64,000 nucleotides of DNA from a phage: sequence record PZ386951.1. The stretch is one strand, 5' to 3'. Below, one piece after another: positions 5,112 through 61,358 of this stretch (the stretch's first letter is position 1; the number at the start of each line of letters is the position of its first letter). The notes under the pieces are model-generated. The model did no database searches. It was not told where the DNA came from and saw only the letters and a list, made by a program, of their open reading frames with translations. The translations under genes and the position numbers were made by a program.

Positions 5112-5127
5112 AAGGGCCGAAGCCCTT
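5112..5127 (-). terminator. intercistronic GC stem-loop with UUCG loop on transcript
   Basis: AAGGGC CGAA GCCCTT; minus-strand RNA loop reads UUCG. Confidence 0.5.
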
Positions 5128-5130
5128 ATT

Positions 5131-5325
5131 TTATTTGAATTGTGCAATTCTTTTCTCTAGACATTCAGCATAAGATTTCATTGAAATGAACTGTGAAAGC
5201 AGCAGTTCTTGCTCAACTGTACTAACCGTTAGAAACTTTGCGCTTTCTAAAAATTTGCTCAGTGCATTAATTTTGAGCATTAATTGATCGTATTCTTCTT
5301 TTACTCGTGCTTGATAACCTAACAT
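5131..5325 (-). CDS. hypothetical protein (64 aa)
   Basis: Minus ORF with ATG start, flanked by two UUCG-type hairpins. Confidence 0.55.
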   Translation of the reverse strand: MLGYQARVKEEYDQLMLKINALSKFLESAKFLTVSTVEQELLLSQFISMKSYAECLEKRIAQFK

Positions 5326-5339
5326 AATTTTCCTTAGTT

Positions 5340-5355
5340 AAGGGCCGAAGCCCTT
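5340..5355 (-). terminator. intercistronic GC stem-loop with UUCG loop, directly 3' of rIIB
   Basis: AAGGGCCGAAGCCCTT overlapping rIIB stop codon. Confidence 0.5.
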
Positions 5356-6292
5356 ATTTAAATTGTTCAGTAACGTCTTCAACTACTTCGTATTGGCAGG
5401 TACGCATTTTAGCATCGTTGTAATCAATCGGAATTGATACTACATCACGCGGATGTACTTTAACTTTTACAACTCGGCTAGTTGAACTGCCAAAGTGGCG
5501 AATATAAGATTTAGAACACACATGCAGACCACGAGAACAAGTTTGTGTATCATCGTCATTCACACGAGTACGTGGCATTTTAACTACTTTACCCGGACTG
5601 TTATCAAAGGTGTTTGAGTGACAGTCAAAGTAGTTGTCACGAACTACTTTCCAAGCATAGAAGTAACCATCTTCGGTGATTTCAATATCGTTTGCTACCA
5701 AGAAATCAAAAAGTCGAGATACCGCTTTCTGGCTTGGGTTTTCCAGCAGATTTTCCAAGAACGGAAAATAAAATTCAAAGTTTTCACCTTTTTCCATCGA
5801 GTCAAGAATACGATCAACTAAACCGGACCGCAATTCGATATTTTGATAGAACAAGCTTCCACCTTCAATTCGAACATCGCCGGAAATATATTTTTCAACA
5901 GCGCGACGAACATTAATTTTTTGTGCCGCTTCTTCCAACTTATCTGCTACAAGCAGATTAAGAATTTCCTGGAAGTTTGAATGAGTATTAGGAGTTGCGT
6001 TATAAGTTACACCGTCAACAGTAATTGAAATGAATTTTTTAGAAGCATTCCAAATAATATCAGATTTAGCAACTGGAGCAATAGCTACATCGCTATTAAC
6101 TTTAACTGTAATGTCACCGCTAATAGTAACTGCAGAGCGTTCTGCTTCTTCAGCATTTTTCAAAACACGACGGATTGTGTCAACCGATACACCTTGCCAA
6201 TCAGCCAATTCCTGCTGAGTGTAATTACCACTTGAATACAGTTTAACAATTTCAGCTTGTTCGTTTTTGGTCAGGCATTTAATATTGTACAT
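5354..6292 (-). CDS. rIIB: RIIB
   Basis: 312-aa ORF, same length as T4 rIIB, directly next to the 725-aa rIIA ORF. Confidence 0.88.
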   Translation of the reverse strand: MYNIKCLTKNEQAEIVKLYSSGNYTQQELADWQGVSVDTIRRVLKNAEEAERSAVTISGDITVKVNSDVAIAPVAKSDIIWNASKKFISITVDGVTYNATPNTHSNFQEILNLLVADKLEEAAQKINVRRAVEKYISGDVRIEGGSLFYQNIELRSGLVDRILDSMEKGENFEFYFPFLENLLENPSQKAVSRLFDFLVANDIEITEDGYFYAWKVVRDNYFDCHSNTFDNSPGKVVKMPRTRVNDDDTQTCSRGLHVCSKSYIRHFGSSTSRVVKVKVHPRDVVSIPIDYNDAKMRTCQYEVVEDVTEQFK

Positions 6293-6303
6293 AATTTTCC
6301 TTA

Positions 6304-8481
6304 TTAGGTCGCAAGGGCCTTCATAGTTTTGGCGATTTGGGAAACTTCATCATCACTTAAAGAGTTGCGATATCCGATGAAGTCGGAAACAATACGGAAT
6401 TTCTTGGTAAACTCAGCAACCATTTTATCACTGTTTTTTGAAGCATTATTTGATAATACATCAAAAAGATTAGTTACTGTCCAGATGTCATGACCGATGG
6501 TATCTTTTCCACCGTTGAAATATACACCCTGTAATGAACTAACCATATTAGCGAGTCGTGTATATTCTTCAGAAACTTCATCTACACTGAAGTACTTCAT
6601 CATAAAATCTAACTCAGGATACTTGATAATTTTATCAATATATCGTTTAGCTGAACTTGAATAACCTACATACTTATCATAATCTACATCATCAAAAGCA
6701 TCTACATATAAATCACGCAAAGCTTCAAAAATACATTGGCACTGACCGAGTTCTTTTACCTTTTTCTGTAAAAGCGGACGAATAACATAAAATTCATTAA
6801 TGCCAATAAGATTAGCCATACGAATCAAAATATTCATAGATGGATGACAAAGAGATGTAGTACCATCCATAGAGAAAATATCAGAACGATGCATATACGC
6901 TACATAACCAGTAATTTCATCTGCTTCTGACGTAAGTGTAAATAGTTCCTCTTTTTCCCAGCGCCCGTCTTTAATTTCAAATTTAAATGCTGTAGCAGCT
7001 TTAGGACGAGGAGCTTTACTTTTAATTACCTTTGGAATATAGCTTTTAACTAAAGCTTCAATTTCTGACAAATAATGAATGTTAACTTCATCACTTTCAA
7101 ACATCGCCATAATATCAGGAAGCAAATCAATCTGCGATTCTACTTCCGGATTAATAAACAGAAGACGCTCATTGTGATGAATATTTAAAGTGTTATTAAA
7201 TTCACTATCATCTAACGCATGTGCTAATCCACGGACAATATTAACACGATTTTTAATATTATCAATAACGATATTAATTTTTGTTGTATTAATACCAAAC
7301 AGACGATAACTTGATGCAACGGCTGAAGTTTCATGACTTTGCTTAATGCGTTTCAGTCGAGGGTCAAGATTTACTTCATACACAACCCCTGCATTACATA
7401 ACTTACTATCAGGTTCAAACATACTCTGCATCTTCTTATATGACAGATTTTTAGTCGTGAATTTGACTGAATTACTAATCATATAATCTCGAGCAGAATA
7501 CCCCATCTTCATCAATTCACGATATGTATGACGGGGAGATGTAGATTCTTTAAATCGTTTTACATCTTCATTAAATGCTTTCTCACTGAGTTCTTTAACT
7601 CGTTCAATAATATTTTTACGAGTGCGATCATCTAGTGAAAGAGCCTCGCGAGATGGAGCAATATCAAGTGAACCCATTGGAAACTTAATGTAATTCACTT
7701 CATTGCGAATGCTTAGCCAGTTACGGTCTCTAATAACACCATCGATAGGATAAACAATACCGCCATAGATAGCATATAATCCGCCGCGATCTGGCCAGTA
7801 TCTTTCTGGATTTACACCGTAATAATCATCAAAATCCGGAAAATAATCAATTTCGCGGTCAAGACCATTAATGATAGCCAAATCTTTGAACGGTCGCATG
7901 ATATAAGAAACTTCATAAGCAAAGTTTCTAAAGTCTTTTTCTTCAACTGGAACTACGATTTCAATACCAGTTTTATCATCTGGACCCATTTCTTTTACGA
8001 ATGTAGGTTTAATCTGCGGACCATCGCCATCCATGTAAGCTACATAACCACGAATTTCACCTTTATGATACGAAGTAATACTAAATGTATCAGTATAACT
8101 AAACGGAGATTTAGAACCTAAACCAAATCCGCCAATGAAATCGTTAGATTCAGCCTTAGATGAACTGAAGTATGAATTATACAGCCCAGGAGAATTATCA
8201 TCACCCTGAATATCAAAATCACTCATACCCGGACCAAAATCTCGACAAACAAATCGTGGATCTAAACGTCCAGGAACTTGAATGATAAATTTTTCAGGAT
8301 TTCCATTGAGAGCATGAGCATCAATCATGTTAGTAATTAATTCACGGACTACTGCGCGAATTTTGTTTGTATACAAATCAGATGACAGAATTTTAAATAC
8401 TTTAGGAGATGCTGTGATGCTAAATGCTTTTGATTTAGAACCATTACCAAGAATTGTTTCTTTTTCAGTGGTGATAATCAT
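6304..8481 (-). CDS. rIIA: RIIA
   Basis: 725-aa ORF, same length as T4 rIIA; conserved rIIB-rIIA-39 synteny. Confidence 0.88.
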
Positions 8482-8491
8482 AATTTCCTCA

Positions 8492-8695
8492 TTAATTCAT
8501 ATTACGCTTAATAACTTCAGCAACTTCTAGTAGTTCATCTTTAGTTGCGGTGTCGGATTGAATTTTATCTCTAATATCCTTAAAGCGGTTTTTAAATTCT
8601 TCGGCTTCTCCCATATCGAAAAAGCGTTGAATGATTCTATATTCTCGATGAACTGCTTTATCAAAAAGTTCTAAATTTACTTTATATGATTTCAT
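8492..8695 (-). CDS. hypothetical protein (67 aa), rIIA.1-like position
   Basis: Minus ORF between gene 39 and rIIA, downstream of early promoter. Confidence 0.6.
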
Positions 8696-8720
8696 TCCAA
8701 TATCCTCATTTGCCCAATTA

Positions 8721-8750
8721 ATTATACCACATCCTTGTGGTAAAGTAAAC
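8721..8750 (-). promoter_or_regulatory. T4-type early promoter (consensus TGGTATAAT / GTTTAC)
   Basis: ATTATACCA at 8721-8729, GTAAAC at 8745-8750. Confidence 0.65.
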
Positions 8751-10567
8751 TACTGGCTCATCCATTCTTTACGAAGGTCAGCATTATCTCCCATGAGCAT
8801 TTCAAAAAGCTCTTTCCAGTTCTCAGGAAGTTTAACAACATCATATACTGGATTTTGAATCATTTCACGATATTCAGATTTTTCCAAAGAGCCAAGTCCT
8901 TTAATATAACGGATGCTATGTTTAGGTAGAGCATCTTTGGCACTCTCATATTCAGCGACTGTATAAAACCATTCTTGTTTTTTACCGACCTGAGCGATGA
9001 TTACAGGAGTTTTGACAAAGCGAATTCGTCCTTGCTCAAACAATTCTGGCCAATTACTAAAAAATCCGAGCAGAGAAGGATAAATGCTTCCTAGACCATC
9101 ATAGTCAGCATCAGTCATAATAGCAATATTGCGATAATTCAAGTTTTCAGCTTTTTCACCAAGAACTAGACCAGTGATTGCGCAAATATCAAACAGTTCT
9201 TTGTTTTTAAGCATATCAGCATATGACATACCCCAGCTATTAAGAACTTTACCGCGTAATGGATAACCACCATGAAGTTCTTTATCGCGAACATCAATAA
9301 GATATCCGATAGCAGAATCACCCTCAGTCAAGAAAAGAGTAGTATCAGCATCTTTACCACAAAGATTCGCTTTAATATGTTTATGAACCTTAGCTTTAGA
9401 AGCCTTTTTAGCTGCTTTAGTTTCTGCCGCTTTTTCTGCCGCCAATTTACGAGCTAGTGCAGCTTCAATAATCGGCATCAAAATCGCTTCATTATTCAAA
9501 ATAGCACGTGAAATCTTTTTAGCATCAAGTTGAATATGACTACGGATTTCACCAAATGGAGAAGTCAAACGCTCTTTAGTTTGAGAATCAAATCGCATGT
9601 TTTTCATATCACGAACAAACATAACGATAGTCAAACATTCTTTAACGCGTGCTTTAGTTACATCAATTTTGAACTTACGTTTGATTTGTGGAATAAGGTC
9701 TTCACAAATATCATCCATAACACAATCAATGTGATGGCCACCATTCTTAGTATGAATGTTATTCACATAAGTTAATTGACGAAAACCATCCGGTGAACGA
9801 CCAACCGCAATAGAACAATTTTCTTGCTCTTGAACAATAGCATGTTCATCATACTGTCGTGCATATTTCTTAAAATTGCCCTGAACCTTTTTACCATTAA
9901 AGGTAAATTGAATATCAGGATAAACAACAGCAAGTGTCTGGAGACGATCTAATGTAATGTCAAGATAAACTTGGGACAGCTCATTAGTTTCAAATGTCAT
10001 AAAATCAGGAATGAAAGTAACACGGGTTCCTTTCCATTTTCCAGGAATATCTTCCCATGATTTATTTTCCATGCCATTTGAACAACGAACTACAATATTA
10101 TTTTGACCGTCGCCAGTTTCACCAACAAACATCACAGAAAAAATATTTGTCAAACTAGAACCAACACCATTCATACCGCCAGTGACGCGTTCTTTATCAT
10201 CACCAAAGTTACCACCTGCTTTTGGAATAGTCCATGCAGCAACAGGACCAGGAATTTCTTCACCGGTAGGTGTTTTAACCATCGCCTGTGGAATACCGCG
10301 ACCGTTATCTTCAACTGTTACTTGATTGTTTTTAATAGTAACATTAATTTTATTTGCGAATTTAAACTTAGTACGAATACCTTCATCGACTGAGTTATCG
10401 ATAATTTCATCAATAAGCTTAACAAGACCAGGTACATACTGAACACTTTCCCATTTACCAAACAGAAAGCGCTCATGCATTTCATTAGCTGAAGAGCCAA
10501 TGTACATGCCGCTACGCTTTTTGATATGTTCAATATCGCTCAGAATTTTAATTTCATTCTTAATCAT
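8750..10567 (-). CDS. 39: DNA topoisomerase II large subunit gp39 (GyrB-like ATPase), unsplit form
   Basis: About 605 aa from ATG at 10565-10567 (track start is GTG one codon upstream); MIKNEIKILSDIEHIKKRSGMYIGS... GHKL ATPase; no separate gene 60. Confidence 0.92.
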   Translation of the reverse strand: MIKNEIKILSDIEHIKKRSGMYIGSSANEMHERFLFGKWESVQYVPGLVKLIDEIIDNSVDEGIRTKFKFANKINVTIKNNQVTVEDNGRGIPQAMVKTPTGEEIPGPVAAWTIPKAGGNFGDDKERVTGGMNGVGSSLTNIFSVMFVGETGDGQNNIVVRCSNGMENKSWEDIPGKWKGTRVTFIPDFMTFETNELSQVYLDITLDRLQTLAVVYPDIQFTFNGKKVQGNFKKYARQYDEHAIVQEQENCSIAVGRSPDGFRQLTYVNNIHTKNGGHHIDCVMDDICEDLIPQIKRKFKIDVTKARVKECLTIVMFVRDMKNMRFDSQTKERLTSPFGEIRSHIQLDAKKISRAILNNEAILMPIIEAALARKLAAEKAAETKAAKKASKAKVHKHIKANLCGKDADTTLFLTEGDSAIGYLIDVRDKELHGGYPLRGKVLNSWGMSYADMLKNKELFDICAITGLVLGEKAENLNYRNIAIMTDADYDGLGSIYPSLLGFFSNWPELFEQGRIRFVKTPVIIAQVGKKQEWFYTVAEYESAKDALPKHSIRYIKGLGSLEKSEYREMIQNPVYDVVKLPENWKELFEMLMGDNADLRKEWMSQ

Positions 10568-10594
10568 CACTTATCCTCGTTTGGTTTCGGGAAT

Positions 10595-10619: not shown

Positions 10620-10620
10620 A

Positions 10621-10636
10621 AAGGCCCGAAGGCCTT
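10621..10636 (-). terminator. intercistronic GC stem-loop (UUCG loop)
   Basis: AAGGCC CGAA GGCCTT. Confidence 0.5.
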
Positions 10637-10897
10637 TTATTTAAAACGAATAGTCGAATCCTTGAAGAATAGTCCAGAACATACTGTTCCTTCTACTTTC
10701 TGCCCAGTAGGTCCAATAGCACGAAATCCAGTATGCTGGAAATCATTTTCAGAGCAACCGAACCAATTATATCCAGTGATTTCAATATTAGTAAAACCAC
10801 TTGAAGACAAAACTTTGGTTGCATTATCAGCATCAGTACATCCTATTAAAGACACTGCTAATACTAATGCTGCAATAGAACGATTAATATATTTCAT
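10637..10897 (-). CDS. putative lipoprotein (about 86 aa)
   Basis: Signal peptide with lipobox-like LIGC (MKYINRSIAALVLAVSLIGCTD...); track start is GTG. Confidence 0.55.
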   Translation of the reverse strand: MKYINRSIAALVLAVSLIGCTDADNATKVLSSSGFTNIEITGYNWFGCSENDFQHTGFRAIGPTGQKVEGTVCSGLFFKDSTIRFK

Positions 10898-10902
10898 AAT
10901 TT

Positions 10903-12755: not shown

Positions 12756-12799
12756 AGTTATCTCTCACTTGTTAAAAAGATTTTATACTCCACAGGACC

Positions 12800-12829
12800 A
12801 TTATACTCTGGTCCCAAGAGTTTGTAAAC
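12800..12829 (-). promoter_or_regulatory. T4-type early promoter
   Basis: ATTATA at 12800-12805 and GTAAAC at 12824-12829. Confidence 0.5.
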
Positions 12830-20910: not shown

Positions 20911-20924
20911 CATAAAATGAAAAA

Positions 20925-20944
20925 AGGAACCCCGAAGGATTCCT
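20925..20944 (-). terminator. stem-loop 3' of soc (UUCG loop, one mismatch)
   Basis: AGGAACC CGAA GGATTCCT. Confidence 0.45.
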
Positions 20945-20950
20945 TAAATT

Positions 20951-21855: not shown

Positions 21856-23195
<1,340 letters not shown>

Positions 23196-26981: not shown

Positions 26982-27344
26982 TTAAAAGAATTTAAATTTT
27001 TTCTTTGACCTTTTATTAAATGCATCTTGTAGTTGCATTGTAATACATTTTTCTACATGAGGAGCTAACTCAGCTTTTCTTTCTTGGTCAAGAACAGCAA
27101 AGTCCATTACAACCTTTCCATCAACCCAATCTAATTTTGTCACATATACAATGTGTGTAGAACCATCTTCTAGTTTAATGACAATCTCCTGGATAACATT
27201 TTCCATAGCGGATTTAATTATCTTAAGAGACTCATTAAAAAGACGTTCTTTTCTTTCTTCTTCCCCCTCCGAAGAGGGGGATTCATCGATAATTTCTAGA
27301 TCTAAATCTAAATCATCTTTATTCATTAAATTCTTCCATATCAC
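26982..27344 (-). CDS. hypothetical protein, gp40 position
   Basis: 120 aa from GTG (or 114 aa from ATG 27324-27326); overlaps uvsX 3' end; a GC hairpin lies inside its 5' region. Confidence 0.5.
   Translation of the reverse strand: MIWKNLMNKDDLDLDLEIIDESPSSEGEEERKERLFNESLKIIKSAMENVIQEIVIKLEDGSTHIVYVTKLDWVDGKVVMDFAVLDQERKAELAPHVEKCITMQLQDAFNKRSKKKFKFF
27273..27292 (-). other. GC stem-loop (CCCCCTC CGAA GAGGGGG) just 3' of uvsX stop, inside the following ORF
   Basis: 7-bp perfect stem with CGAA/UUCG loop. Confidence 0.45.
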
Positions 27345-29420: not shown

Positions 29421-30157
29421 TTCCACTCACCGTTATAATCTTTTTTCACAATATGAGTTTCGCCAGTATTCCACCAATGATCAACCAAGTAAAAATGACG
29501 AGAATATACATGAAGACTTCCAACATTCCATATAATAGAACCTGCTTTATACTGACGAGTTGAATCGCCTGCATTCAAATCAGATACTAATTTATCTAAT
29601 ACGTATTTTTGCCATGCATAATCATTACGGAATCCGAAGACCACGTCATTTGAGCGCATGCTTACTACTGCATTGACTTTCTTATCACGAATCAGGTACT
29701 GTACTGTATTCGTACACATGAAATCTGACATACCATCTTTATTGTAGTCAAATTGCATGGATGGACGAGTATAAATCATGATACCACGTCGAGAATCAGG
29801 ATTTTGACCAAGTTCAGCTAAACACATGTCATATTGAGCATAGTTATCTTCTGACCAGATAGCCCAACCATAATTCGAGTTAATTTCACCTTTAGAAGAT
29901 GCTACCTGCTGCCAAATCTTTGGTGTTTCACCCGGAATATCTTTAACGAACAAGCTCTTAGATTTATACCATTCAAGTTCACGCTGAATGTATTCATCAT
30001 TAAGAGCGCCAAAAATAAACGGTTCATCTGCTACAAATGATGCGCCAATAATTTCAATAGTTTTAACACCAGTTTTATCAACTACGAAATCTTTTTCTTT
30101 TAATGCAAGCCCCAAATGAAGACGGATTTCTTCAACTGTCATAGAGTCACTAATCAT
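29417..30157 (-). CDS. 42: dCMP hydroxymethylase gp42
   Basis: 246-aa ORF, same length as T4 gp42; thymidylate-synthase-like fold. Confidence 0.9.
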   Translation of the reverse strand: MISDSMTVEEIRLHLGLALKEKDFVVDKTGVKTIEIIGASFVADEPFIFGALNDEYIQRELEWYKSKSLFVKDIPGETPKIWQQVASSKGEINSNYGWAIWSEDNYAQYDMCLAELGQNPDSRRGIMIYTRPSMQFDYNKDGMSDFMCTNTVQYLIRDKKVNAVVSMRSNDVVFGFRNDYAWQKYVLDKLVSDLNAGDSTRQYKAGSIIWNVGSLHVYSRHFYLVDHWWNTGETHIVKKDYNGEWK

Positions 30158-31017: not shown

Positions 31018-31104
31018 AGTTTTGTGAAAATTTTTTAGGGAATTCTAAAGGTCCAGAATCATCTGTTTTTCATAAGTATAGATTTATATTACTTGTATGA
31101 AAAA

Positions 31105-31120
31105 GGGACCCGGAGGTCCC
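31105..31120 (-). terminator. GC stem-loop 3' of gene 43
   Basis: GGGACC CGGA GGTCCC. Confidence 0.5.
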
Positions 31121-31133
31121 TAGATTTATTCTA

Positions 31134-33830: not shown

Positions 33831-33890
33831 AGATATTCCTTAGTTTATAGCCCGAGTTATTAGGCTCTTGATATATTATACTCCAAATAA

Positions 33891-33904
33891 GGGGCCGAAG
33901 CCCC
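33891..33904 (-). terminator. GC stem-loop (UUCG loop) 3' of regA
   Basis: GGGGC CGAA GCCCC. Confidence 0.5.
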
Positions 33905-33908
33905 TTGC

Positions 33909-35803: not shown

Positions 35804-35838
35804 AATTTCCTCATTCAAGTTTTAGTGTAAATTATAAA

Positions 35839-35850
35839 GGGCCGAAGCCC
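35839..35850 (-). terminator. GC stem-loop (UUCG loop) 3' of gene 45
   Basis: GGGC CGAA GCCC. Confidence 0.45.
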
Positions 35851-35854
35851 TCTA

Positions 35855-36541
35855 TTAAAAATCGTGGGTAGAATCAGCTTCAAGAGCTACTACATAATTC
35901 GCGTGTTCACCTTCAAATTTAGCAGCACCTTGTTTACCTTTTGCCCAGAGCAGAAGTTTATAATTTCCTGGTTGCATTTTCATATTTGCCATATTGATAA
36001 TGAAATTAAATGTATTTTCACCATCATAATCACCAAGAGTCAAAGAATATTTAACACGGGTCAGAGCAGAATCTTCTACTTTATTAAAACCGTTAATTAC
36101 GATTTTACCTTCTTTTACCGTGATAGCAATTGTATCAATTTGCAGACCACGAGATACACGCAACAGTTGTTGAAGGTCTTCAGCTTTAATTTCAGTAACA
36201 ACAGATGCTACCGGGAATGGAATTGGTTTATTAGGAGCAACTACTGTACTCGGATCGGCTGCTGGCCAAAAAATTGTTGAGCGGGCATCAGCAATTTTAA
36301 TATTTCCATCTTCTGACTGAGAAATTTCTGCATCATCATTAACTAAAGACAGAATACCGAGAAAACCGTTCAAATCGTAAATTGCTACATCAAAATCAAT
36401 AACGTCAGAAATATTTGCTTCCGCATAAGTTGTACCATTAACTGCGCGAGTCATAATAAATTGACCGGATTTAAGCATAATACCAGAGTTAATAGTAGCG
36501 AAATTTTTCAAAATATTCAGTGTGTCTTTAGATAATTTCAT
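35855..36541 (-). CDS. 45: sliding clamp gp45
   Basis: 228-aa ORF, same length as T4 gp45. Confidence 0.92.
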   Translation of the reverse strand: MKLSKDTLNILKNFATINSGIMLKSGQFIMTRAVNGTTYAEANISDVIDFDVAIYDLNGFLGILSLVNDDAEISQSEDGNIKIADARSTIFWPAADPSTVVAPNKPIPFPVASVVTEIKAEDLQQLLRVSRGLQIDTIAITVKEGKIVINGFNKVEDSALTRVKYSLTLGDYDGENTFNFIINMANMKMQPGNYKLLLWAKGKQGAAKFEGEHANYVVALEADSTHDF

Positions 36542-37425
36542 TTCAATTTCCTATTTACATAATAGTTAGACCAGGACCGTACAGCACCCTGATAAGATTC
36601 GTCGTTAAACCCATTAGCTACTGCAATTTTACGAAATTTATTATAACTTGGTTTTCCGTAAGCATGCCATAAAGATTTTAATTCATCTTCATGTTCAATC
36701 CAAGTTCCTCTAGCTTTAGATTTTCTAAATTTTGATTTGAATTCCGGTAAATTATTTCTAACAGTTGCTTGAATTGAAGCTCTCTGTCTTCTTTTAGCAT
36801 TATTCCATAATTCTTTTTGAGATTTAGAAATTTTTGATCTTACACTTTCTGAATTCATTATATCACTAAACTTTTTAGCATAACTACAATCAAGATATTT
36901 CAATTTCATCTTATTTGAGAGTTTAAGCTTTTTCTCATCGGTCCAGTGATTCTTCATTGAATTAGATATTTTGTATTTTACTTCAGAACTATGTTTGTAA
37001 CCTTTACGAATACCGACATACTCAGGCGTAATTTCAGATTGCGAAAGCTTTACAATTTTTCCAGTTAAAACATTTTTATATGTTCCATATCCTTTAGCAC
37101 CAATTAAAGTATTTTCATCTGCGTATGCTTTATTAAAATATTTTATATTACTTTTTGCTTTAACTTTTAATTGAAAAAATCTCTCCAATTTTCTTGGATC
37201 TAATATAGTTTCAGCTAAAATTTTGACGGTATATTTAGTGGTTTTAATAAGTTCAAAATATTCATCGCTATAACTCGATGACACGCTTCCAGTATAAATC
37301 TTTCCAGCTGAATCAATTATATTTGTTCCATCGAAAATTGCGTTAATTTTTGAACCTATATAATAACACGGAAAAATATTTTTAGCTTCCCGCTCTGGAA
37401 AGCTAATAAGATATACTAAATTCAT
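36538..37425 (-). CDS. GIY-YIG homing endonuclease (Seg-like) with NUMOD-like DNA-binding repeats
   Basis: N-terminus VYLISF...CYYIGSK (GIY-YIG variant); repeats [18 protein letters not shown] and [14 protein letters not shown]; overlaps gene 45 start and rpbA stop by 4 nt each. Confidence 0.7.
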
Positions 37426-38064: not shown

Positions 38065-39747
38065 TTAAACCATTACAGTAAATCGACCGACTTTCTTCAT
38101 TTGAAGATGCTGACCATATTCTTGCGGGTCATGGTCTTTATGCGAAATTATAAAAACATTAGTGTTTTTCATTGAATTTATAATATTAGCTACACCTTTA
38201 ATACCTTCGGCATCAAATGACCCATCAAACACTTCATCAAGAATTAATGTACTAATACTAACACCAGATACGATAGAAGCAATATCACGCCAAGTAAATA
38301 AAAGAGCAATATCGATTCGTGCCTTTTCACCTTCACTAAATGAAGCATAACTAAAATCTTCACGACCACGGGATTTAATTGTCTCATTAAATTCTTCATC
38401 TAATGTAAACACATAATCCGCTTCCATTATTTTAAGATAATGGTTAATCTGCTTATTAAATAATGGAATGTACTTTTTAATAATAGCACCTTTAATACCA
38501 GAATCTTTGAGCATATCAGTCAAAATTCCTCGGTGATATTTTTCCATTACTAAATTAGTTTTTGTCTTAACAATTTTATCAAGTTCTTCTTGAAGCAGTG
38601 CTATTTCGTCAGCATGGTCAATAAACTCAGAAGATGCTTTTTCTATAGCTGCTTTAACTTTTTTGGCTTTATCTACCGTCGTGATTAGAGATTGCTTTTT
38701 ATTGCGAATATCATTTGCCAACGACTGCTGGGTTTTAATATTATCTCGGTATTCATCAACAAGAACTTTTAAATTATCACGATGTGTTGAAAGCTGTTCA
38801 AACGAATGCGTACATTCAGAAACTTTATCTTTAATTTTAGAAACAACTTTATCACCGGAACTCAATTGTGACAAACAGGTTGGACATAATCCACCTTCGT
38901 GATACATATTAATGACTTTATTATATGAGTCAATTTTTGATTTAATTAAAAATGCTTCTTGACCGATTTTATTAAATGCATCAGTCGGGTCTTCATCCAA
39001 AACAATATTAACTAATCTTTCATTAGCTTCTTCTATTTCCGATTTTAGCGTTCTAGCTTCTTTTGCCAAATCATCATACATATTTTGTAGACGAGTAAGG
39101 TTGTCACCCGTTAATTTTTTCTGGCGTTCAACGTTATCATTATATATTTTAATTTGTTGGATAATACTATCTTTTTTAACATCAAGCACTTGGTTTTGTG
39201 AATTTAATTCACGTATTAGTGCTTTATTAAGCTTATCCATTTCAGCTAATGTTCCTACCTCAAGCAGGTCTTCCACAAGCTTTCTTCGCGCAGGGGTCGA
39301 CAAACCCATGAAAGGGGTATACCCTGCTGTACCAAGGACAACAATCTGCTTGAAACTGGCATATGACATTCCGATAAGCTGTTCAAATTCTGCTTGGAAA
39401 TCTTTACTGCTGGCAGATTCATTAAGACGTGTACCGTTAACGGTGATTTCGAAAACGTTTGGTTTTTGTCCTCTTTTGATATAGTACTTTTTCTCATCAT
39501 ATTCCATCCACAGTTCAACTAAAAGTTCTTTCTTATTTGTGCTGTTTATTAATTGACCTTTCTTTACATCACGGAATGGCTTGCCAAAAAGCCCAAATGT
39601 GATGGCTTCTAACATAGTAGACTTACCACCGCCATTTCGTCCAGTAATAAGAGTTTTTTGAACCTTATCTAATTGAATGTCAATCCCATTTTGACCAACT
39701 GACATTATATTTTTATATTTTACTCTATTAAGTTTAAAATTCTTCAC
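38065..39747 (-). CDS. 46: recombination nuclease subunit gp46 (SbcC/Rad50-like)
   Basis: 560-aa ORF, same length as T4 gp46; Walker A GRNGGGKST; coiled-coil middle; CPTC zinc hook. Confidence 0.92.
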   Translation of the reverse strand: MKNFKLNRVKYKNIMSVGQNGIDIQLDKVQKTLITGRNGGGKSTMLEAITFGLFGKPFRDVKKGQLINSTNKKELLVELWMEYDEKKYYIKRGQKPNVFEITVNGTRLNESASSKDFQAEFEQLIGMSYASFKQIVVLGTAGYTPFMGLSTPARRKLVEDLLEVGTLAEMDKLNKALIRELNSQNQVLDVKKDSIIQQIKIYNDNVERQKKLTGDNLTRLQNMYDDLAKEARTLKSEIEEANERLVNIVLDEDPTDAFNKIGQEAFLIKSKIDSYNKVINMYHEGGLCPTCLSQLSSGDKVVSKIKDKVSECTHSFEQLSTHRDNLKVLVDEYRDNIKTQQSLANDIRNKKQSLITTVDKAKKVKAAIEKASSEFIDHADEIALLQEELDKIVKTKTNLVMEKYHRGILTDMLKDSGIKGAIIKKYIPLFNKQINHYLKIMEADYVFTLDEEFNETIKSRGREDFSYASFSEGEKARIDIALLFTWRDIASIVSGVSISTLILDEVFDGSFDAEGIKGVANIINSMKNTNVFIISHKDHDPQEYGQHLQMKKVGRFTVMV

Positions 39748-41347: not shown

Positions 41348-41370
41348 TATATCAAACTCCGTATAAAGCT
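41346..41370 (-). promoter_or_regulatory. middle-promoter-like element (AGCTTTA, 12 nt, TATAAT)
   Basis: Pattern match only; its -10 overlaps the small ORF start, so function is uncertain. Confidence 0.3.
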
Positions 41371-41388
41371 AAAGGGCCGAAGCCCTTT
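41371..41388 (-). terminator. GC stem-loop (UUCG loop) 3' of a-gt
   Basis: AAAGGGC CGAA GCCCTTT overlapping a-gt stop. Confidence 0.5.
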
Positions 41389-42589
41389 ATTTTGTAATAA
41401 TGTCAAACTGCTCTTTAAAGCAGAAGCTTGAATCTTGATGCTGATACAAAAATTCATATGCTTTTTCTCGCTCACGGTCATAAAGAGCTCGGTCAGATGA
41501 CAGTTCTTTAATACGCTCGAATGTTGATTCCATGTCATTTTCATCAAACCAAATGATACCGCTATCATGAGAAATTAATGGAGTGTTATCAACACGGAAT
41601 TTTAAATTTTCGCCCGTAGATTTCCAAAATACCGGAATTGTTCCACATGCACCAAGCTCGAGATGAGTATATTCTAAAGAGCGCTGTAGATATTTTTTAT
41701 CCAACTTACTCAACTGATAACCAAAACCGGATTTACTCATACGTTCAAGCATTTCGCTATTTACATAACGGTCAAGAATTTGCGTTGGCAAATTAGGAGC
41801 AATTTTAATTTGGTCTACTTGATGAAGACGATAATACTCGTATGGAATTCCTTTTTCTTTAATAGGAATGAACGCTGGAGAACGTTCTAGACCTTCCATA
41901 ATAGTACTTAGTCCTGCAGGTTTAAGATATTTTTCATGAAAATCAAACATCTGATAAAAACCTTTCCATGTAGTCGTACGACCAATCCAACGATTGATAT
42001 TCATGTTAATTTCAGAAACATCTTTCCAGTATGTTGATCGAACCTTTGCAATATCCATCGGAGGCTGAAAGTTATATACGGTCGGTGCTTCTTCAATATC
42101 ATCAAACAGAGAAACAGTTTCTGGATACCACTCTTTCATCAGAACTTTATTAAAATCACCATTATCAGAATGGCTAAAAATAACATCAGCCCGACGAACA
42201 GTTTCTTCTAATCCCAAATTTCGACGCAAAGAAAGAGAAGAATGGTCATGCTGATAAACTACAACACGAACCGAAGGTTTAATGTTATCAATAATTTTTT
42301 TATAGTTATTAATTGTGTCTTCTTCAACTGAAGTAGCAGGAACTGAATTGATAATTAGAATATCACAATCATTTACCAGCTTAAGTGTTTTATCGTATTC
42401 TTTTGCCAATAAAACAGGAATTGAAAATGATTTATAATCATGTGCACAGTTACGAGTAAATGATTTATCTTTAGCATAAACCAAAGTTACTTCATGACCA
42501 TTTTTAATAAACCAATCACGTTGCTCAAGAGAAAATTTAGTTACACCACAACCTTCAAGACCTCGAGCCATAAAAATACATACTTTCAT
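41387..42589 (-). CDS. a-gt: DNA alpha-glucosyltransferase
   Basis: 400-aa ORF; MKVCIFMARGLEGCGVTKFSLEQRDWFIKNGHEVTLVYAKDKSF matches recalled T4 alpha-gt. Confidence 0.9.
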   Translation of the reverse strand: MKVCIFMARGLEGCGVTKFSLEQRDWFIKNGHEVTLVYAKDKSFTRNCAHDYKSFSIPVLLAKEYDKTLKLVNDCDILIINSVPATSVEEDTINNYKKIIDNIKPSVRVVVYQHDHSSLSLRRNLGLEETVRRADVIFSHSDNGDFNKVLMKEWYPETVSLFDDIEEAPTVYNFQPPMDIAKVRSTYWKDVSEINMNINRWIGRTTTWKGFYQMFDFHEKYLKPAGLSTIMEGLERSPAFIPIKEKGIPYEYYRLHQVDQIKIAPNLPTQILDRYVNSEMLERMSKSGFGYQLSKLDKKYLQRSLEYTHLELGACGTIPVFWKSTGENLKFRVDNTPLISHDSGIIWFDENDMESTFERIKELSSDRALYDREREKAYEFLYQHQDSSFCFKEQFDIITK

Positions 42590-42640
42590 TTAATATCCTC
42601 TTTGTTTTGGTTTATTTTACCAAAAATTTATAAAGCAATA

Positions 42641-42658
42641 TAGGAGCCGAAGCTCCTA
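42641..42658 (-). other. GC stem-loop (UUCG loop)
   Basis: TAGGAGC CGAA GCTCCTA. Confidence 0.45.
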
Positions 42659-42832
42659 TCCACATAATACACCGTATAGAGGCTCATTAGAGCTTCTAAA
42701 TTTTCTGCGCTTATATGTTATAGTTCCTTCTGCTTTAGCTTTATCATGAGACTCTTTAAAGCGTCTCATCATTTCCTCTTTAGAGGAACGAATTTTATTA
42801 TAATCTATTTCAGAAGTCTGGGTGTTCATCTT

Positions 42833-44747: not shown

Positions 44748-44764
44748 AAAGGGCCGAAGCCCTT
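44748..44764 (-). terminator. GC stem-loop (UUCG loop)
   Basis: AAAGGGC CGAA GCCCTT. Confidence 0.5.
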
Positions 44765-45712: not shown

Positions 45713-45725
45713 GGCCCAGAGGGCC
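45713..45725 (-). terminator. GC stem-loop 3' of nrdH
   Basis: GGCCC AGA GGGCC. Confidence 0.45.
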
Positions 45726-45729: not shown

Positions 45730-46038
45730 TTAATCTTCTATGATATCTCTATCATATCCAAGTGAAATGAGAGTTTCTTTGAAGTGTTTAATGTTCTTTT
45801 GTCTAGAATCATTAATGAAAATGACCGGATAACGAATGTTAAGAGATGTGAATCCAGCGCGTTTAGCAAGAGATACAATCAGCGGACGATCATACTCAAT
45901 CTTACCATTATTTGTAAGAACTTTATAGAAAGTAAAAGGAGCATTGAGCTCCTTTAGAAGTTTTGTAACTGATTGACATCCAGGACAACGACCTACTTCA
46001 TCTGGAATTCCATAGACTTCAATCTTATTTTGTTTCAC
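45730..46038 (-). CDS. nrdH: NrdH glutaredoxin-like protein
   Basis: 102 aa with CPGC redox motif; GTG start in track. Confidence 0.75.
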   Translation of the reverse strand: MKQNKIEVYGIPDEVGRCPGCQSVTKLLKELNAPFTFYKVLTNNGKIEYDRPLIVSLAKRAGFTSLNIRYPVIFINDSRQKNIKHFKETLISLGYDRDIIED

Positions 46039-56294: not shown

Positions 56295-56298
56295 ACCA

Positions 56299-57672: not shown

Positions 57673-57710
57673 TTTTATTCTCCAAATCTGTATCAGTAGT
57701 TGATAGTTGT

Positions 57711-57740: not shown

Positions 57741-57770
57741 AACTTTGTGAAAAATTTTTGAAATAAAAAT

Positions 57771-57786
57771 GGAGCCCGAAGGCTCC
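57771..57786 (-). terminator. GC stem-loop (UUCG loop) 3' of the nucleotidyltransferase gene
   Basis: GGAGCC CGAA GGCTCC. Confidence 0.5.
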
Positions 57787-57789
57787 CTA

Positions 57790-58803: not shown

Positions 58804-59261
58804 TCAGCCTTATATTCAATAACAGGACATACTTTAGCTTTACGCGCTTTTAAAAATTCGACGATAACCGATTTCTTGGGTTGAATAGGAGGTAAACCCT
58901 TATACGCCCTATCAATATTTTCTACATGTAAAGCATAATCCTTTTTCCATTTATAATCTTTATATTTTTCATGCAGTTGTGCAGGAATAACAAATGAACC
59001 AATAATAAGTAAAACAAGCAAAATGGCAAGTATAAATGCTGATGGAATAAGAGTCCATAAACTACCAAAAATAAGCCATTTCTGTATGATTTCTGCGCAG
59101 ATAATAGTTAGACCTGCGAGTATAGTACATCCGAAAAAAGAAACGAAAAATGTAGGAATAACAATAGACCAAAAGTATGCACACAGTGTCTTAGGTCGTT
59201 TCCATTCGTCGTTAAACATTTTGAATAATTTATAATGCCAAGAGCTTTCATTAATAATCAT
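58800..59261 (-). CDS. membrane protein (153 aa, two TM segments), translationally coupled to the NTase gene
   Basis: Stop overlaps NTase ATG (ATGA); hydrophobic segments FWSIVIPTFFVSFFGCTILAGLTIICA and LIPSAFILAILLVLLIIGSFVI. Confidence 0.55.
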   Translation of the reverse strand: MIINESSWHYKLFKMFNDEWKRPKTLCAYFWSIVIPTFFVSFFGCTILAGLTIICAEIIQKWLIFGSLWTLIPSAFILAILLVLLIIGSFVIPAQLHEKYKDYKWKKDYALHVENIDRAYKGLPPIQPKKSVIVEFLKARKAKVCPVIEYKAE

Positions 59262-59263
59262 AA

Positions 59264-59785
59264 TTATCCTTTCATTGAAGGTGTAACAGTTGTTAAATAC
59301 TTAATCATAGCTTCAGCTTCTGATTTTGACAATGAAATTTCTCCATTGTTTTGACGAATAGAAATAAAATCCGGATGACGGTCACCACCAGCTTTTAAAA
59401 CACACATATAAGTATCAGTTTCATCTTCAATATCTGAAATGATTGAAGCAGTTCCGCATGAATGTGGTTTTTGATAAATCAATGCAGCTTTTCTTCCACC
59501 GTTTGACTGTTCATAAACTTTTAACACATCAAACAAATCACTTCTTTTATCAATAGCTAAGATGTTGTTTTCATCTTCAATGTTAAATCCTTCGGATACT
59601 TCATAAAGTGTCACCCATAAATCGCCAATATCAATGACAGCATTCACCTTTCCATGATTTTCAAGAGCATTACAAATTTTCTTAATTTCATCATAACTCA
59701 TTTTAATAATATCATCTCCTTGAATAAAGAAGATGTCATTTTTAAATTCAACGCGAATTAAACCACTTTCACTTGAAATAAACAT
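59264..59785 (-). CDS. hypothetical protein (173 aa), paralog pair member
   Basis: GAGGAAATAT RBS; C-terminus ISLSKSEAEAMIKYLTTVTPSM resembles that of 59792..60325. Confidence 0.55.
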   Translation of the reverse strand: MFISSESGLIRVEFKNDIFFIQGDDIIKMSYDEIKKICNALENHGKVNAVIDIGDLWVTLYEVSEGFNIEDENNILAIDKRSDLFDVLKVYEQSNGGRKAALIYQKPHSCGTASIISDIEDETDTYMCVLKAGGDRHPDFISIRQNNGEISLSKSEAEAMIKYLTTVTPSMKG

Positions 59786-59791
59786 ATTTCC

Positions 59792-60325
59792 TCACTTTGA
59801 AATCATAGTTGGAATGACAGAATCAAGATAAGTCTTTAGCGCAATAGCTTCGTCTTTGGTAAATGTGACAATATGCGATCGAAAATCGTCAATTTGACGA
59901 ATAGTTAAGACATCTCCCTCTTCATAACATTTTGATACATTTAAAAGAGTTTCATCATTCTGATTGCAAGCGTTAGTAATAATAGCATTGCAATTTTTGA
60001 GCCATTTTAAACTATGTTTTCTTTCATTAGAATAATAAAAATATTTAATCTTAGCTATAAAACTATCCCAATGGATAACTGATAAACACATTGACTCACT
60101 TTTAATATTAAATCCTGGGCATGAAGAATAAAAATGAATTTTGTGCTCATCATTGATGCTTACTATTTTATCAGTATAAGGATATTCAATTTGGGTTAAA
60201 TGAATAATTTCACTAGGTGTAAAATACATCATATCGTCTTCTTGCGTCAAACGATACATATTATTTACTTTTTCTATAGCCAATTCACCAAAAAGTGGAC
60301 TAACTTCTAATACTAATCGTTTCAT
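59792..60325 (-). CDS. hypothetical protein (about 177 aa), paralog pair member
   Basis: Start at first ATG (MKRLVLEV...; track start GTG); C-terminus VTFTKDEAIALKTYLDSVIPTM. Confidence 0.5.
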   Translation of the reverse strand: MKRLVLEVSPLFGELAIEKVNNMYRLTQEDDMMYFTPSEIIHLTQIEYPYTDKIVSINDEHKIHFYSSCPGFNIKSESMCLSVIHWDSFIAKIKYFYYSNERKHSLKWLKNCNAIITNACNQNDETLLNVSKCYEEGDVLTIRQIDDFRSHIVTFTKDEAIALKTYLDSVIPTMISK

Positions 60326-60493
60326 ATTGATTCTCTTCGACTCGCTCACAATTACATACTCCTTTGAATCATATCAATAATATTGTTCACCAAATTATAA
60401 GTAAACATTGGGTAATTATATTGAATCATCACATACACAACAAACAAAATTTTCATTCTCTTCTCCTTGACAGTTGGCAAGATTACTATACCA

Positions 60494-60524
60494 TAACCTT
60501 GCCAACTTGTAAACCATTAAATGA
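60494..60524 (-). promoter_or_regulatory. T4-type early promoter
   Basis: TACTATACCA at 60494-60503, GTAAAC at 60519-60524. Confidence 0.55.
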
Positions 60525-60679
60525 CGTTTTCAATAAAATTCTGAAGCTTTGTATGAGCATCAACCATGATTTTCATTTCTTCCTTTGCGAAAGCTGTACC
60601 TCTTTCCCGAGCAGAATACTCATAGTCAGAAACTGCATTAGCATATTCTTCAATTAGTTTCATTAAAAACATCTGCTTT

Positions 60680-60874
60680 TCAGTTTTCATTATTCCACCT
60701 AATCATTTCAAGGTATTGAACTAACTTAGCTTTGGATTTATCCAAATCCTTTTTAGCTGCTTCTATACCGTCGTATGAATATCCTTCACAATGCTCAACT
60801 GCTAATTGATATGAATCTATTTCAATATCACGTGCTAATTTAATGATTTTTTCAAACTGTTCGCGTGTTAGCAT
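60680..60874 (-). CDS. hypothetical protein (64 aa)
   Basis: Minus ORF with ATG start. Confidence 0.5.
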   Translation of the reverse strand: MLTREQFEKIIKLARDIEIDSYQLAVEHCEGYSYDGIEAAKKDLDKSKAKLVQYLEMIRWNNEN

Positions 60875-60876
60875 AC

Positions 60877-61080
60877 TTAAACTCTCGTATTATGATCGAT
60901 AATTTCATCAAGAAACATATCTAACGCTTCTAAAGCATTATCAACTTTAGCTTCAAGTTCATCAATACCTTTATTTGCAATGCCTGACGAAAACCAAGCA
61001 AAGTCACTAAGTTCCTCATCTGCTTTACGAATTGAAGCCACTAATTCCTTGATTTTATCTGCTTGCTCTATACTAATCAT
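60877..61080 (-). CDS. hypothetical protein (about 67 aa)
   Basis: Start at ATG 61078-61080 overlapping upstream stop (ATGA); track start GTG. Confidence 0.45.
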   Translation of the reverse strand: MISIEQADKIKELVASIRKADEELSDFAWFSSGIANKGIDELEAKVDNALEALDMFLDEIIDHNTRV

Positions 61081-61268
61081 TATTCCACCACATATGAAAG
61101 AGAGAATATTGCACACGCCATGTGAGTTGCAACTTCATCACACATATTATAACGTTTCTTAAGAAGTTCTACAAGTTCTTCACTAGTGACTTCATCCATG
61201 TCGACGAAAAAATCGCCATTAATGATGACATAGATATTTCCTTCTTGATTAAGTGCTTCAATTTTCAT
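61080..61268 (-). CDS. hypothetical protein (62 aa)
   Basis: ATG start downstream of early promoter. Confidence 0.5.
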
Positions 61269-61295
61269 GATGTTCTCCTCTTTATCCGATGGTTG

Positions 61296-61326
61296 TATAG
61301 TACCGCGGCTCAGACGGAAAGTAAAC
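61296..61326 (-). promoter_or_regulatory. T4-type early promoter
   Basis: TATAGTACC at 61296-61304, GTAAAC at 61321-61326. Confidence 0.5.
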
Positions 61327-61342
61327 CGGTAAAATGAAAAAA

Positions 61343-61358
61343 GTCTCCCGAAGGAGAC
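61343..61358 (-). terminator. GC stem-loop (UUCG loop) 3' of rI.-1
   Basis: GTCTCC CGAA GGAGAC. Confidence 0.5.

Follow-up and report, generated by a model that had tools for sequence, protein, structure and literature searches.

We find that the minus-strand RNA of a 64,000-nucleotide stretch of phage DNA (sequence record PZ386951.1; the window, taken at its whole length) carries the classic C(UUCG)G mRNA hairpins of T-even phages, a real feature and one that is already known. The existence of these hairpins, their strand specificity, their orthology with T4, their covarying structure and their positions relative to stop codons and promoters are established. The hairpins at transcription-unit boundaries very probably serve as partial intrinsic terminators or as protectors of RNA 3′ ends, activities that we infer from established knowledge and the literature, and this reading is the published view of the T4 UUCG hairpins. 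Tuerk et al. in 1988 (PNAS 85:1364) reportedly described the C(UUCG)G hairpins of T4 mRNA as ultra-stable, and the T4 genome review of Miller et al. (2003) is said to catalogue them. The UUCG loop was first found in T4 mRNA (PMC4371310) and is frequent in T4 intergenic stem-loops, terminators among them (PMC1702504); across the literature the motif recurs among T4 hairpins and is given a role as terminator or RNA stabiliser.

C(UUCG)G hairpins lie on the minus-strand RNA

The window comes from a T4-type Tequatrovirus with ~97% identity to T2-like phages, and all of its genes lie on the minus strand. A search for TTCG loops between complementary arms returned 13 C(UUCG)G hairpins, all of them GC-rich and on the minus-strand RNA, with stems of 6–9 bp, 4–6 G-C pairs and a C-G closing pair in all 13. 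We limited a quality set to perfect Watson-Crick stems of 5 bp or more that include three or more G-C pairs. Twelve of the 13 hairpins have perfect stems, against a mean of 0.02 and a maximum of 1 in 300 dinucleotide-preserving shuffles, and the plus strand, scanned over the whole window, held no C(UUCG)G hairpin of quality-set standard. Among the 33 tetraloop hairpins of the quality set, 12 have a UUCG loop and the runner-up loop accounts for three. A core, GGGCCGAAGCCC, is present in six plus-strand copies where shuffles predict 0.02, and the 16-mer AAGGGCCGAAGCCCTT occurs exactly at both 5112–5127 and 44749–44764.

Minimum free energy (MFE) folding of each site plus 20 nt to either side, a check proposed in the first-pass annotation of this DNA, recovered all 13 hairpins. 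The bare hairpins have predicted energies of -8.8 to -15.9 kcal/mol, under a model that includes a bonus for the UUCG loop. Folding z-scores of individual sites are modest (-0.06 to -3.3), dinucleotide shuffling partly preserving GC-rich palindromes. An Rfam search of the whole window gave no match at or above a family gathering score.

The first-pass annotation had described about 15 such stem-loops between 5112 and 61358, with the UUCG loop on the minus-strand RNA. The strand is borne out by all 13 hairpins, with none on the plus strand. The count and the range need trimming: 12 of the 13 fall inside that range, whereas one at 2662–2677 lies outside it and the last ends at 61359. Among the sites it had listed, those at rIIB, 39.1, soc, regA, 45, a-gt, nrdC.11 and rI.-1 do have UUCG loops, but the gene 43 and nrdH sites carry UCCG and UCU loops instead. 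The denB.1, a-gt.2 and 55.3 hairpins had not been named.

Hairpins sit at gene ends, with and without U-tracts

Placement at gene 3′ ends, as previously proposed, holds for 11 of the 13 hairpins, which are either intergenic or share sequence with a stop codon, but not for those of stp and gene 40, which lie within coding sequence. Hairpins at gene ends overlap the stop codon or stand 0–5 nt from it. The earlier remark that several overlap stops was correct: the codon is wholly inside the hairpin at rIIB, a-gt and a-gt.2, and the overlap is 1–2 nt at 55.3, 45 and 39.1. To compare the sequences that follow, we scored U-tails against the background of the window (mean 0.94, 95th percentile 2.44).

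Four hairpins, all on the minus strand like the rest, have strong U-tails (3.8–4.9). The denB.1 hairpin (5112..5127) starts 3 nt past the stop, is followed by UUUUGUUUU and is terminator-like on either strand. The soc hairpin (20924..20945), 5 nt past its stop, has a 9-bp stem that includes one G-U pair and a compensatory change relative to T4; its U-tract reads UUUUUUCAUUUU when two stem-end U are counted, and UUUUCAUUUU beyond the stem. At 55.3 (44749..44764) the hairpin shares 2 nt with the stop and runs into UUUUUGG, and at rI.-1 (61342..61359), 4 nt past the stop, it is followed by UUUUUCAUUUU in a canonical terminator shape.

Intermediate scores (2.7–3.0) mark the hairpins of 39.1 (10620..10637, at the stop; T4 5381-5398), regA (33889..33906, 2 nt past the stop; T4 29952-29969), a-gt (41370..41389, with the UAA stop within the 5′ arm; T4 36607-36626) and nrdC.11, a nucleotidyltransferase gene (57771..57786, 3 nt past the stop and followed by AUUUUUAUUU). 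The gp43 translational operator hairpin comes after the regA hairpin.

Three hairpins score 1.8–2.1, below the 95th percentile. That of rIIB (5339..5356) holds the UAA stop in its 5′ arm and has no U-tract; denB.1 has its Shine-Dalgarno sequence and AUG in the next 15 nt. Between genes 45 and 44, the 9-bp hairpin at the stop of gene 45 (35834..35855) has a weak U-tract. The a-gt.2 hairpin (42640..42659; T4 38715-38734) contains the UAG stop and is followed by UUGCUUUA.

At the two coding-sequence sites the U-tail is near nil. The gene 40 hairpin (27262..27281; T4 22329-22348) scores 0.00; its 8-bp stem, with six G-C pairs, spans codons 16–22, and it lies 38 nt past the uvsX stop, lacks a U-tract and is followed by AAGAAGAAAG. 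The stp hairpin (2662..2677; T4 165510) scores 0.33 and has a 6-bp stem, GGCGUC/GACGCC, formed by the last stp codons (encoding GVFGR); it has no U-tract, and the Shine-Dalgarno sequence and AUG of ac come next. A canonical U-tract is present in only about a third of the C(UUCG)G hairpins.

Promoters follow several of the hairpins. Judged from orthologous positions, the starts of the mapped T4 middle promoters P39, P43, P47 and PmobB lie 19–33 nt past four of them. The 39.1 hairpin adjoins a MotA box (GCUUUA), a 12-nt interval and TATAAT, the orthologue of P39 (T4 start 5349), and the a-gt hairpin adjoins a MotA box and TATAAT orthologous to P47 (T4 start 36576). The DNA of the regA hairpin occupies about -19 to -36 of P43. 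Past the a-gt.2 hairpin lies the orthologue of PmobB (T4 start 38682), the mobB gene being absent from the window. Promoter-like sites follow two more hairpins, a strong one 15 nt after that of soc and another 32 nt after that of nrdC.11.

Hairpins with other loops occupy comparable places. The gene 43 site (31104..31121, minus strand), 12 nt past the stop, has a UNCG-class UCCG loop followed by UUUUUCAU, and the nrdH site (45713..45725, minus strand), 3′ of that gene, forms the triloop hairpin GGCCC(UCU)GGGCC followed by UUUCUUUCU; both are terminator-like. The hairpin between motA.1 and motA (853..874, minus strand), which has a GC-rich stem of 9 bp and a CGAG loop and is followed by UUUUUUAUUU, is the window's best canonical terminator and belongs to the same functional set as the UUCG hairpins despite its different loop.

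Position, strand and structure are conserved in T4-like phages

In T4 (NC_000866), an aligned hairpin stands at the matching place for all 13 window hairpins, most of them identical in sequence, and the stp and gene 40 hairpins sit within coding sequence there as well. The comparison of positions with T4 that had been suggested thus places every one at an orthologous site, and it upholds the earlier identification of the motif as the hyperstable UUCG tetraloop of T4 mRNA (PMC4371310). A genome-wide count in T4 gave 23 UUCG hairpins, and in all 23 the UUCG reading falls on the strand of the neighbouring genes; three of them belong to late regions on the plus strand, where they follow genes 18, 23 and 37. 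Forty T4-like loci, totalling 795 kb, hold 106 UUCG, 117 UNCG and 29 GNRA hairpins on the sense strand, against 0, 3 and 2 on the antisense strand.

Orthologous hairpins in other T4-like phages hold their position while their stems covary, and their loops interchange among UUCG, UACG, UCCG and GNRA (GAAA), all stable RNA tetraloops. For this comparison we kept one hairpin per orthologous intergenic region, the best with a tetraloop, a choice that leaves positional conservation unaffected. At the 45/44 position, where a hairpin with covarying stems is widely conserved, double changes occur in 7 of 7 pairs and the covariation score is 0.79, versus 0.21 when shuffled; the 94% of cells that are paired is a figure inflated by choosing the best hairpin. 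The regA/43 hairpin has double changes in 6 of 7 pairs, and its 100% pairing is inflated in the same way. Distant T4-like phages also keep the structure of the gene 40 hairpin. Positions that are kept, stems that covary and loops that switch therefore indicate selection on RNA structure.

These data weigh against a DNA-level explanation, in which the hairpins would belong to a REP-like or mobile family of dispersed palindromes or would act as cruciforms or hairpins in replication, recombination or nuclease recognition. An identical 12-mer is common to six copies, and several hairpins lie at T4 homing-endonuclease insertion points that are empty here (mobB after the a-gt.2 hairpin), as such a reading would have it. 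However, alignment of the six identical-core copies confined their similarity to the stem, ~16–18 nt, with unrelated flanks. In T4 (23 of 23) and in relatives (106 versus 0) the orientation always follows the mRNA, a constraint that a double-stranded palindrome does not need, and the stems covary while the loops are exchanged only among RNA-stable tetraloops. We regard a DNA-level role as highly improbable. A REP/BIME-like or mobile repeat was rejected, there being no similarity past the stem and no occurrence in both orientations.

Putative roles of the hairpins

Each hairpin would fold upon transcription at, or a few nucleotides from, the end of a cistron, usually at a transcription-unit boundary, and the sequence downstream would decide its role. 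Those with a U-run (denB.1, soc, 55.3 and rI.-1 and, more weakly, nrdC.11, 39.1, a-gt and regA) are predicted to act as Rho-independent terminators, mostly partial ones that would release a fraction of polymerases just ahead of the next promoter. The first-pass annotation had proposed terminators or attenuators and 3′ stabilisers, a reading that fits without being uniform. The terminator part applies cleanly to a subset only: the U-tract is strong in 4 of 13 and intermediate in 4 of 13, but weak or absent in 5 of 13. Termination is therefore not the common denominator, because those five have no usable U-tract.

That all 13 might be Rho-independent terminators and nothing else, with polymerase always released at whatever U follow, is accordingly hard to sustain. 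The GC-rich stems and 4-nt loops are those of E. coli and T4 terminators, the latter described as having a GC stem and a 4-nt loop ahead of poly(U) (PMC2988022); 8 of 13 U-tails exceed the 95th percentile of 2.44; and a promoter or promoter-like site follows 7 of 13, as expected for unit ends. Yet the tails at 27262 and 2662 are essentially free of U and those at 5339, 35834 and 42640 stay below the threshold. Moreover, 5339, 2662 and 35834 sit inside gene groups known to be co-transcribed, where the following ribosome-binding site is a few nucleotides away (denB.1 and ac, respectively) or, for gene 44, ~25 nt away; full termination there would silence promoterless downstream genes, such as 44-62-regA after 45. 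We consider termination as the sole activity very unlikely.

For the hairpins with little or no U-run (rIIB/denB.1, 45/44, a-gt.2, stp and gene 40), the most likely role would be in setting RNA 3′ ends and protecting them. Once read-through transcripts are cut, such hairpins would halt 3′-to-5′ exonucleases, so that the upstream cistron would outlive the downstream one, and they may also let adjacent cistrons fold independently. This stabiliser role is an inference by analogy. In T4, an RNA 3′ end lies in vivo directly past a stem-loop within the 358 nt before gene 41 (PMC12152347), and the UUCG hairpin is the sole compact GC-rich stem-loop of that stretch. The stem-loop drawn there is probably the hairpin of gene 40. 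Debate over this RNA end has moved from termination to RNA stability (PMC2988021; PMC12152347).

That shift, together with the retention of a hairpin without a U-tract after gp45 in many phages, would also suit a purely post-transcriptional account, with exonuclease stops and insulators or nucleation sites for inter-cistron folding but no termination at all. We find this very unlikely: the tails at 20924, 61342, 5112 and 44749 are textbook (3.8–4.9) and passed a terminator scan, and the comparable internal T4 terminator of mobE stops ~30% of transcripts (PMC2988022). Translational control is the least probable reading of all. T4 does have hairpins that sequester ribosome-binding sites, at soc, e, 39, 25, 26 and homing endonuclease genes (PMC2988022), and a Shine-Dalgarno sequence lies 5–15 nt downstream of several window hairpins; but in 0 of 13 does the stem contain a downstream Shine-Dalgarno sequence or start codon, and the hairpins are tied to the upstream stop. 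Partial termination or 3′-end protection, depending on the downstream sequence, stays the preferred reading.

Comparison with known systems

In E. coli operons, REP sequences are intercistronic stabiliser stem-loops of about 35 nt. Like them, the window hairpins place a stable stem-loop at the point where an upstream cistron of a polycistronic RNA ends, and by analogy a block to 3′ exonucleases and differential expression would be expected for 45 versus 44/62 and for rIIB versus denB.1. They differ from REP elements in being much shorter (16–22 nt), in having conserved sequence at the tetraloop alone and in not forming a repeat family of shared descent.

Rho-independent terminators of E. coli and T4 have the same stem and loop geometry and GC-rich stem, and the window set likewise stands at unit ends before promoters, with a U-run after at least four hairpins. 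In contrast to that class, 5 of 13 hairpins lack its defining U-run and two lie within coding sequence. The weak internal terminators of T4 mobE and segF are found in the 5′ part of coding regions with a middle promoter downstream, and that of mobE, which stops ~30% of transcripts, has a poly-U (PMC2988022). The gene 40 hairpin has a like layout, early in the downstream coding region and just past the uvsX stop, and might modulate read-through into the essential gene 41; it differs from mobE in being followed by AAGAAGAAAG in place of poly-U.

The closest likeness is to the T4 C(UUCG)G hairpins themselves. The UUCG hairpin of the T4 gene 60 bypass element has no counterpart in the window because the gene 60 insertion is absent. 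Elsewhere the differences are small ones of sequence, with a compensatory pair change in the window soc hairpin and perfect window stems where the old T4 reference misses a base, and the two sets agree in loop, C-G closing pair, strand and genomic position.

A UUCG hairpin family at T4 positions

We scanned the reverse strand of the window for TTCG loops with complementary flanks. The scan returned 13 GC-rich stem-C(UUCG)G-stem hairpins, all on the minus strand, here listed by start position with the preceding gene: 2662 (stp), 5112 (denB.1), 5339 (rIIB), 10620 (39.1), 20924 (soc), 27262 (uvsX), 33889 (regA), 35834 (45), 41370 (a-gt), 42640 (a-gt.2), 44749 (55.3), 57771 (nrdC.11) and 61342 (rI.-1). 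Perfect stems of ≥5 bp, including three or more G-C pairs, occur in 12 of the 13, against a mean of 0.02 UUCG hairpins of that quality in 300 dinucleotide-preserving shuffles, and the plus strand of the window yielded no perfect-stem UUCG hairpin. Of the 33 tetraloop hairpins with stems of this quality, 12 have a UUCG loop (runner-up loop, n = 3). The 12-mer GGGCCGAAGCCC has six plus-strand copies in the window versus 0.02 expected, and at every UUCG site the hairpin forms part of the minimum free energy fold when 20 nt of flank are included on either side. The 12-mer excess, shuffle counts and folds therefore establish the hairpins as real and far from chance; we relied on these family-level statistics, single-site shuffle z-scores being weak evidence for short GC palindromes. 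An Rfam scan of the whole window gave no family match.

The first-pass annotation had proposed such a recurrent family at gene 3′ ends between 5112 and 61358, with some members overlapping stop codons. The family is confirmed, and the range covers every UUCG hairpin except 2662. Eleven of the hairpins are intergenic or overlap a stop codon, and two lie inside coding sequence: the stp hairpin sits within the last stp codons, and that after uvsX in gene 40 codons 16–22. The stem contains the entire stop codon at rIIB, a-gt and a-gt.2 and overlaps it by 1–2 nt at 55.3, 45 and 39.1, bearing out the proposed overlap; at the remaining intergenic UUCG sites the hairpin begins 2–5 nt after the stop. 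UUCG loops had also been assigned after gene 43 and nrdH, where the loops prove to be UCCG (31104–31121) and a UCU triloop (45713–45725), respectively. Other strong non-UUCG minus-strand hairpins lie at 853–874 in the motA.1/motA interval (CGAG loop and U6 tail, the best canonical terminator of the window), 3228–3249 (9-bp stem with 7 G-C pairs) and 45935–45955 (8 bp).

The window, with ~97% identity to T2-like records, comes from a Tequatrovirus; all its long ORFs are on the minus strand. Mapping the sites one by one onto the annotated T4 genome (NC_000866) placed orthologues of all 13 UUCG hairpins, and of the related hairpins at 853–874, 31104–31121 and 45713–45725, in the same positions. 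For five hairpins (5112–5127, 5339–5356, 35834–35855, 44749–44764 and 31104–31121), the orthologous stem in NC_000866 (loci L001–L003) is missing one base; the same five stems are perfect in the window and in re-sequenced T4T (HM137666, L095). The missing bases are probably gel-compression errors of 1980s sequencing. One alters the annotated end of 55.3, giving 79 aa in NC_000866 versus 66 aa in T4T and the window.

Separately, the topoisomerase large subunit is a single continuous 606-aa ORF (8750–10570); the T4 gene 60/mobA insertion is absent, and so are the 50-nt translational bypass and the UUCG take-off hairpin (T4 2834–2857) that belong to it. Two homing-endonuclease genes, mobB and segF, are likewise missing beside hairpins that remain present.

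Selection acts on the RNA

A palindromic stem is the same on both strands, so strand identity can be read from the loop alone. Across the whole T4 genome, the UUCG reading matches the orientation of the local genes at 23 of 23 UUCG hairpins; three of these belong to late regions on the plus strand, following genes 18, 23 and 37. We then compared 80 viral-contig loci, each surrounding a regA homologue, divided into 40 closer relatives (regA identity ≥63%, 795 kb) and 40 distant ones (≤60%). The closer relatives carry 106 UUCG, 117 UNCG and 29 GNRA hairpins on the coding strand and 0, 3 and 2, respectively, on the antisense strand; the motif is almost missing in the distant relatives.

Three orthologous positions keep a hairpin despite sequence change: one follows gp45, another follows regA, and the third lies in gene 40 past the uvsX stop. 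The stems are separated by compensatory changes, and the loops are UUCG, UACG, UCCG, GAAA, UCAG or UAAG. In loop-anchored alignments of the best tetraloop hairpin per orthologous intergenic stretch, a choice that favours pairing and of which positional conservation is independent, the 45/44 hairpin is paired in 94% of cells; all 7 of its pairs show double changes, and its covariation score reaches 0.79 (versus 0.21 in shuffles and ≤0.19 with partners slid). The regA/43 hairpin is 100% paired, and 6 of its 7 pairs show double changes. The alternative of a DNA-level palindrome is contradicted by the strand bias, the covariation and the choice of loops. Selection on the hairpins acts on RNA.

The six identical-core copies have nothing in common beyond ~16–18 nt when aligned, so the family is convergent rather than a copied repeat; a mobile or dispersed repeat was ruled out, as similarity ends at the stem. 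Occupancy can be lineage-specific: among the nine loci found for the rIIB site, close relatives have the hairpin, and it is missing where rIIB identity has fallen to 51%. Two of these close relatives (L086 and L090) have UUUG in place of UUCG on the same stem, ~3 nt past the rIIB stop, a natural loop variant of an otherwise identical site. Five hairpins have plus-strand T-rich tails; we did not count these as evidence of antisense terminators, because the genome is 65% A+T and the loop is always UUCG on the sense strand.

U-tails divide the hairpins into two classes

U-tails were scored over the 15 nt past the G-C core, with a scheme modelled on that of d'Aubenton-Carafa (window background: mean 0.94, 95th percentile 2.44). 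Tails are textbook at 5112, 20924, 44749 and 61342 (3.8–4.9), intermediate at 10620, 33889, 41370 and 57771 (2.7–3.0), weak at 5339, 35834 and 42640 (1.8–2.1), and essentially lacking at 2662 and 27262 (0–0.3). Anatomy thus splits the UUCG hairpins into those with and those without a U-run. The U-less hairpins fall inside co-transcribed groups, and the next ribosome-binding site lies within a few nucleotides of the hairpin at rIIB/denB.1 and stp/ac and ~25 nt downstream at 45/44. Sequestration of ribosome-binding sites is countered by the stems themselves, none of which takes in a Shine-Dalgarno sequence or start codon.

Known T4 terminators have poly(U) and a GC-rich stem with a 4-nt loop, and some of them, as in mobE and segF, are located in the 5′ portion of a coding region; that of mobE halts ~30% of transcripts and is followed by a middle promoter (PMC2988022). 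UUCG is frequent in T4 intergenic stem-loops "like transcription terminators" (PMC1702504). The literature searched contained no genome-wide T4 3′-end mapping by Term-seq or ONT-cappable-seq. That all the hairpins are terminators and nothing else is contradicted by the five sites with a weak or absent U-tract, several of them inside operons; against the view that all are purely post-transcriptional elements stand the four canonical terminator tails and the mobE precedent. We consider a two-part reading likely, with terminators where a U-run is present and 3′-end protectors or insulators where it is not. Hairpins with a U-run would act as partial intrinsic terminators, marking unit ends just before the next promoter, and U-less hairpins would probably define RNA 3′ ends, shield them from 3′ exonucleases and insulate the folding of neighbouring cistrons.

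Hairpin-promoter junctions

Many hairpins have a promoter immediately downstream. The mapped T4 middle-promoter starts P39 (5349), P43 (29933), P47 (36576) and PmobB (38682; PMC2988021, Table 1) lie 32, 19, 31 and 33 nt past the 3′ ends of the T4 hairpins at 5381, 29952, 36607 and 38715, respectively. In the window, the stems at 10620 and 41370 are directly followed by GCTTTA, 12 nt, and TATAAT. Promoter-like sites with a TG follow the soc (11/12 matches) and nrdC.11 (9/12) hairpins; after rI.-1, the site scores below the scanner threshold.

The DNA of the regA 3′ hairpin (33889–33906; T4 29952–29969) spans about −19 to −36 of P43 and occupies the expected MotA box position. In other T4-like phages, the hairpin lying 6–10 nt before the same GGAGTATAAT differs in both stem and loop. 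Overlap of a structure or terminator with the upstream promoter element seems to be a conserved arrangement at P43; the window region concerned runs on downstream to ~33830. The idea that the common GGGCUUCGGCCC version doubles as a MotA box (GCTTC resembling the GCTT(t/c) core) was dropped as unsupported: at P43 the GCTT core is 15 bp from the −10 hexamer, versus 12 ± 1, and in other phages the orthologous hairpins that precede this TATAAT have loops of GAAA or UACG. Elsewhere, a 6-bp GC-rich minus-strand hairpin (12795–12814, GGACCA/UGGUCC), whose 8-nt loop carries GAGTATAA, overlaps the −10 hexamer of a near-consensus promoter-like site (12828–12800, 11/12 matches); a second GGAGTATAA comes after it.

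The gene 40 hairpin

A stable hairpin is retained in the start of gene 40 (27262–27281) where uvsX is 68–87% identical. Among the relatives compared (loci L017–L020, L023–L031, L038 and L039), stems differ and loops are UCAG, UAAG, CUAGU or CUA, so the encoded gene 40 peptide must differ. Such sequence comparison suggests that RNA structure is under selection here inside coding sequence.

A 2025 report from the Hinton laboratory describes an in vivo RNA 3′ end immediately past a stem-loop; the stem-loop lies in the 358 nt preceding gene 41, and more RNA ends there in rho mutants (PMC12152347). The corresponding stretch of the window has a single compact GC-rich stem-loop, the UUCG hairpin, and we infer that it is the structure described in that report. 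Whether this RNA end arises by termination or decay is still debated (PMC2988021).

A bolder proposal, which we regard as rather unlikely, is that the U-less hairpins (45/44, rIIB/denB.1, a-gt.2, stp and especially gene 40) form a separate Tevenvirinae-conserved class that directs intra-operon 3′-end formation without intrinsic termination, sets the ratio of neighbouring cistrons, and could be the site of the long-debated effects of Rho, Rop and GoF (an LSm-like protein) on T4 middle mRNA levels. If true, the gene 40 hairpin, kept where the sequence otherwise differs, would make that old question directly testable.

Discussion

Our analysis sets canonical terminators apart from U-less hairpins of unsettled action. 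The hairpin-then-promoter pattern allows transcription-unit boundaries to be mapped cleanly when the phage is annotated, and the conserved gene 40 hairpin offers a handle on the control of uvsX-40-41 mRNA levels. As a discovery the family carries little weight, the window holding copies of the T4 UUCG hairpins; residual interest lies only in the conserved U-less class, especially the gene 40 hairpin, and in the tight hairpin-promoter junctions. The first-pass annotation found and interpreted the family correctly, and the finding is already known because it restates a classic T-even phage feature at orthologous positions: the UUCG tetraloop first came to notice in T4 mRNA, its textbook case.
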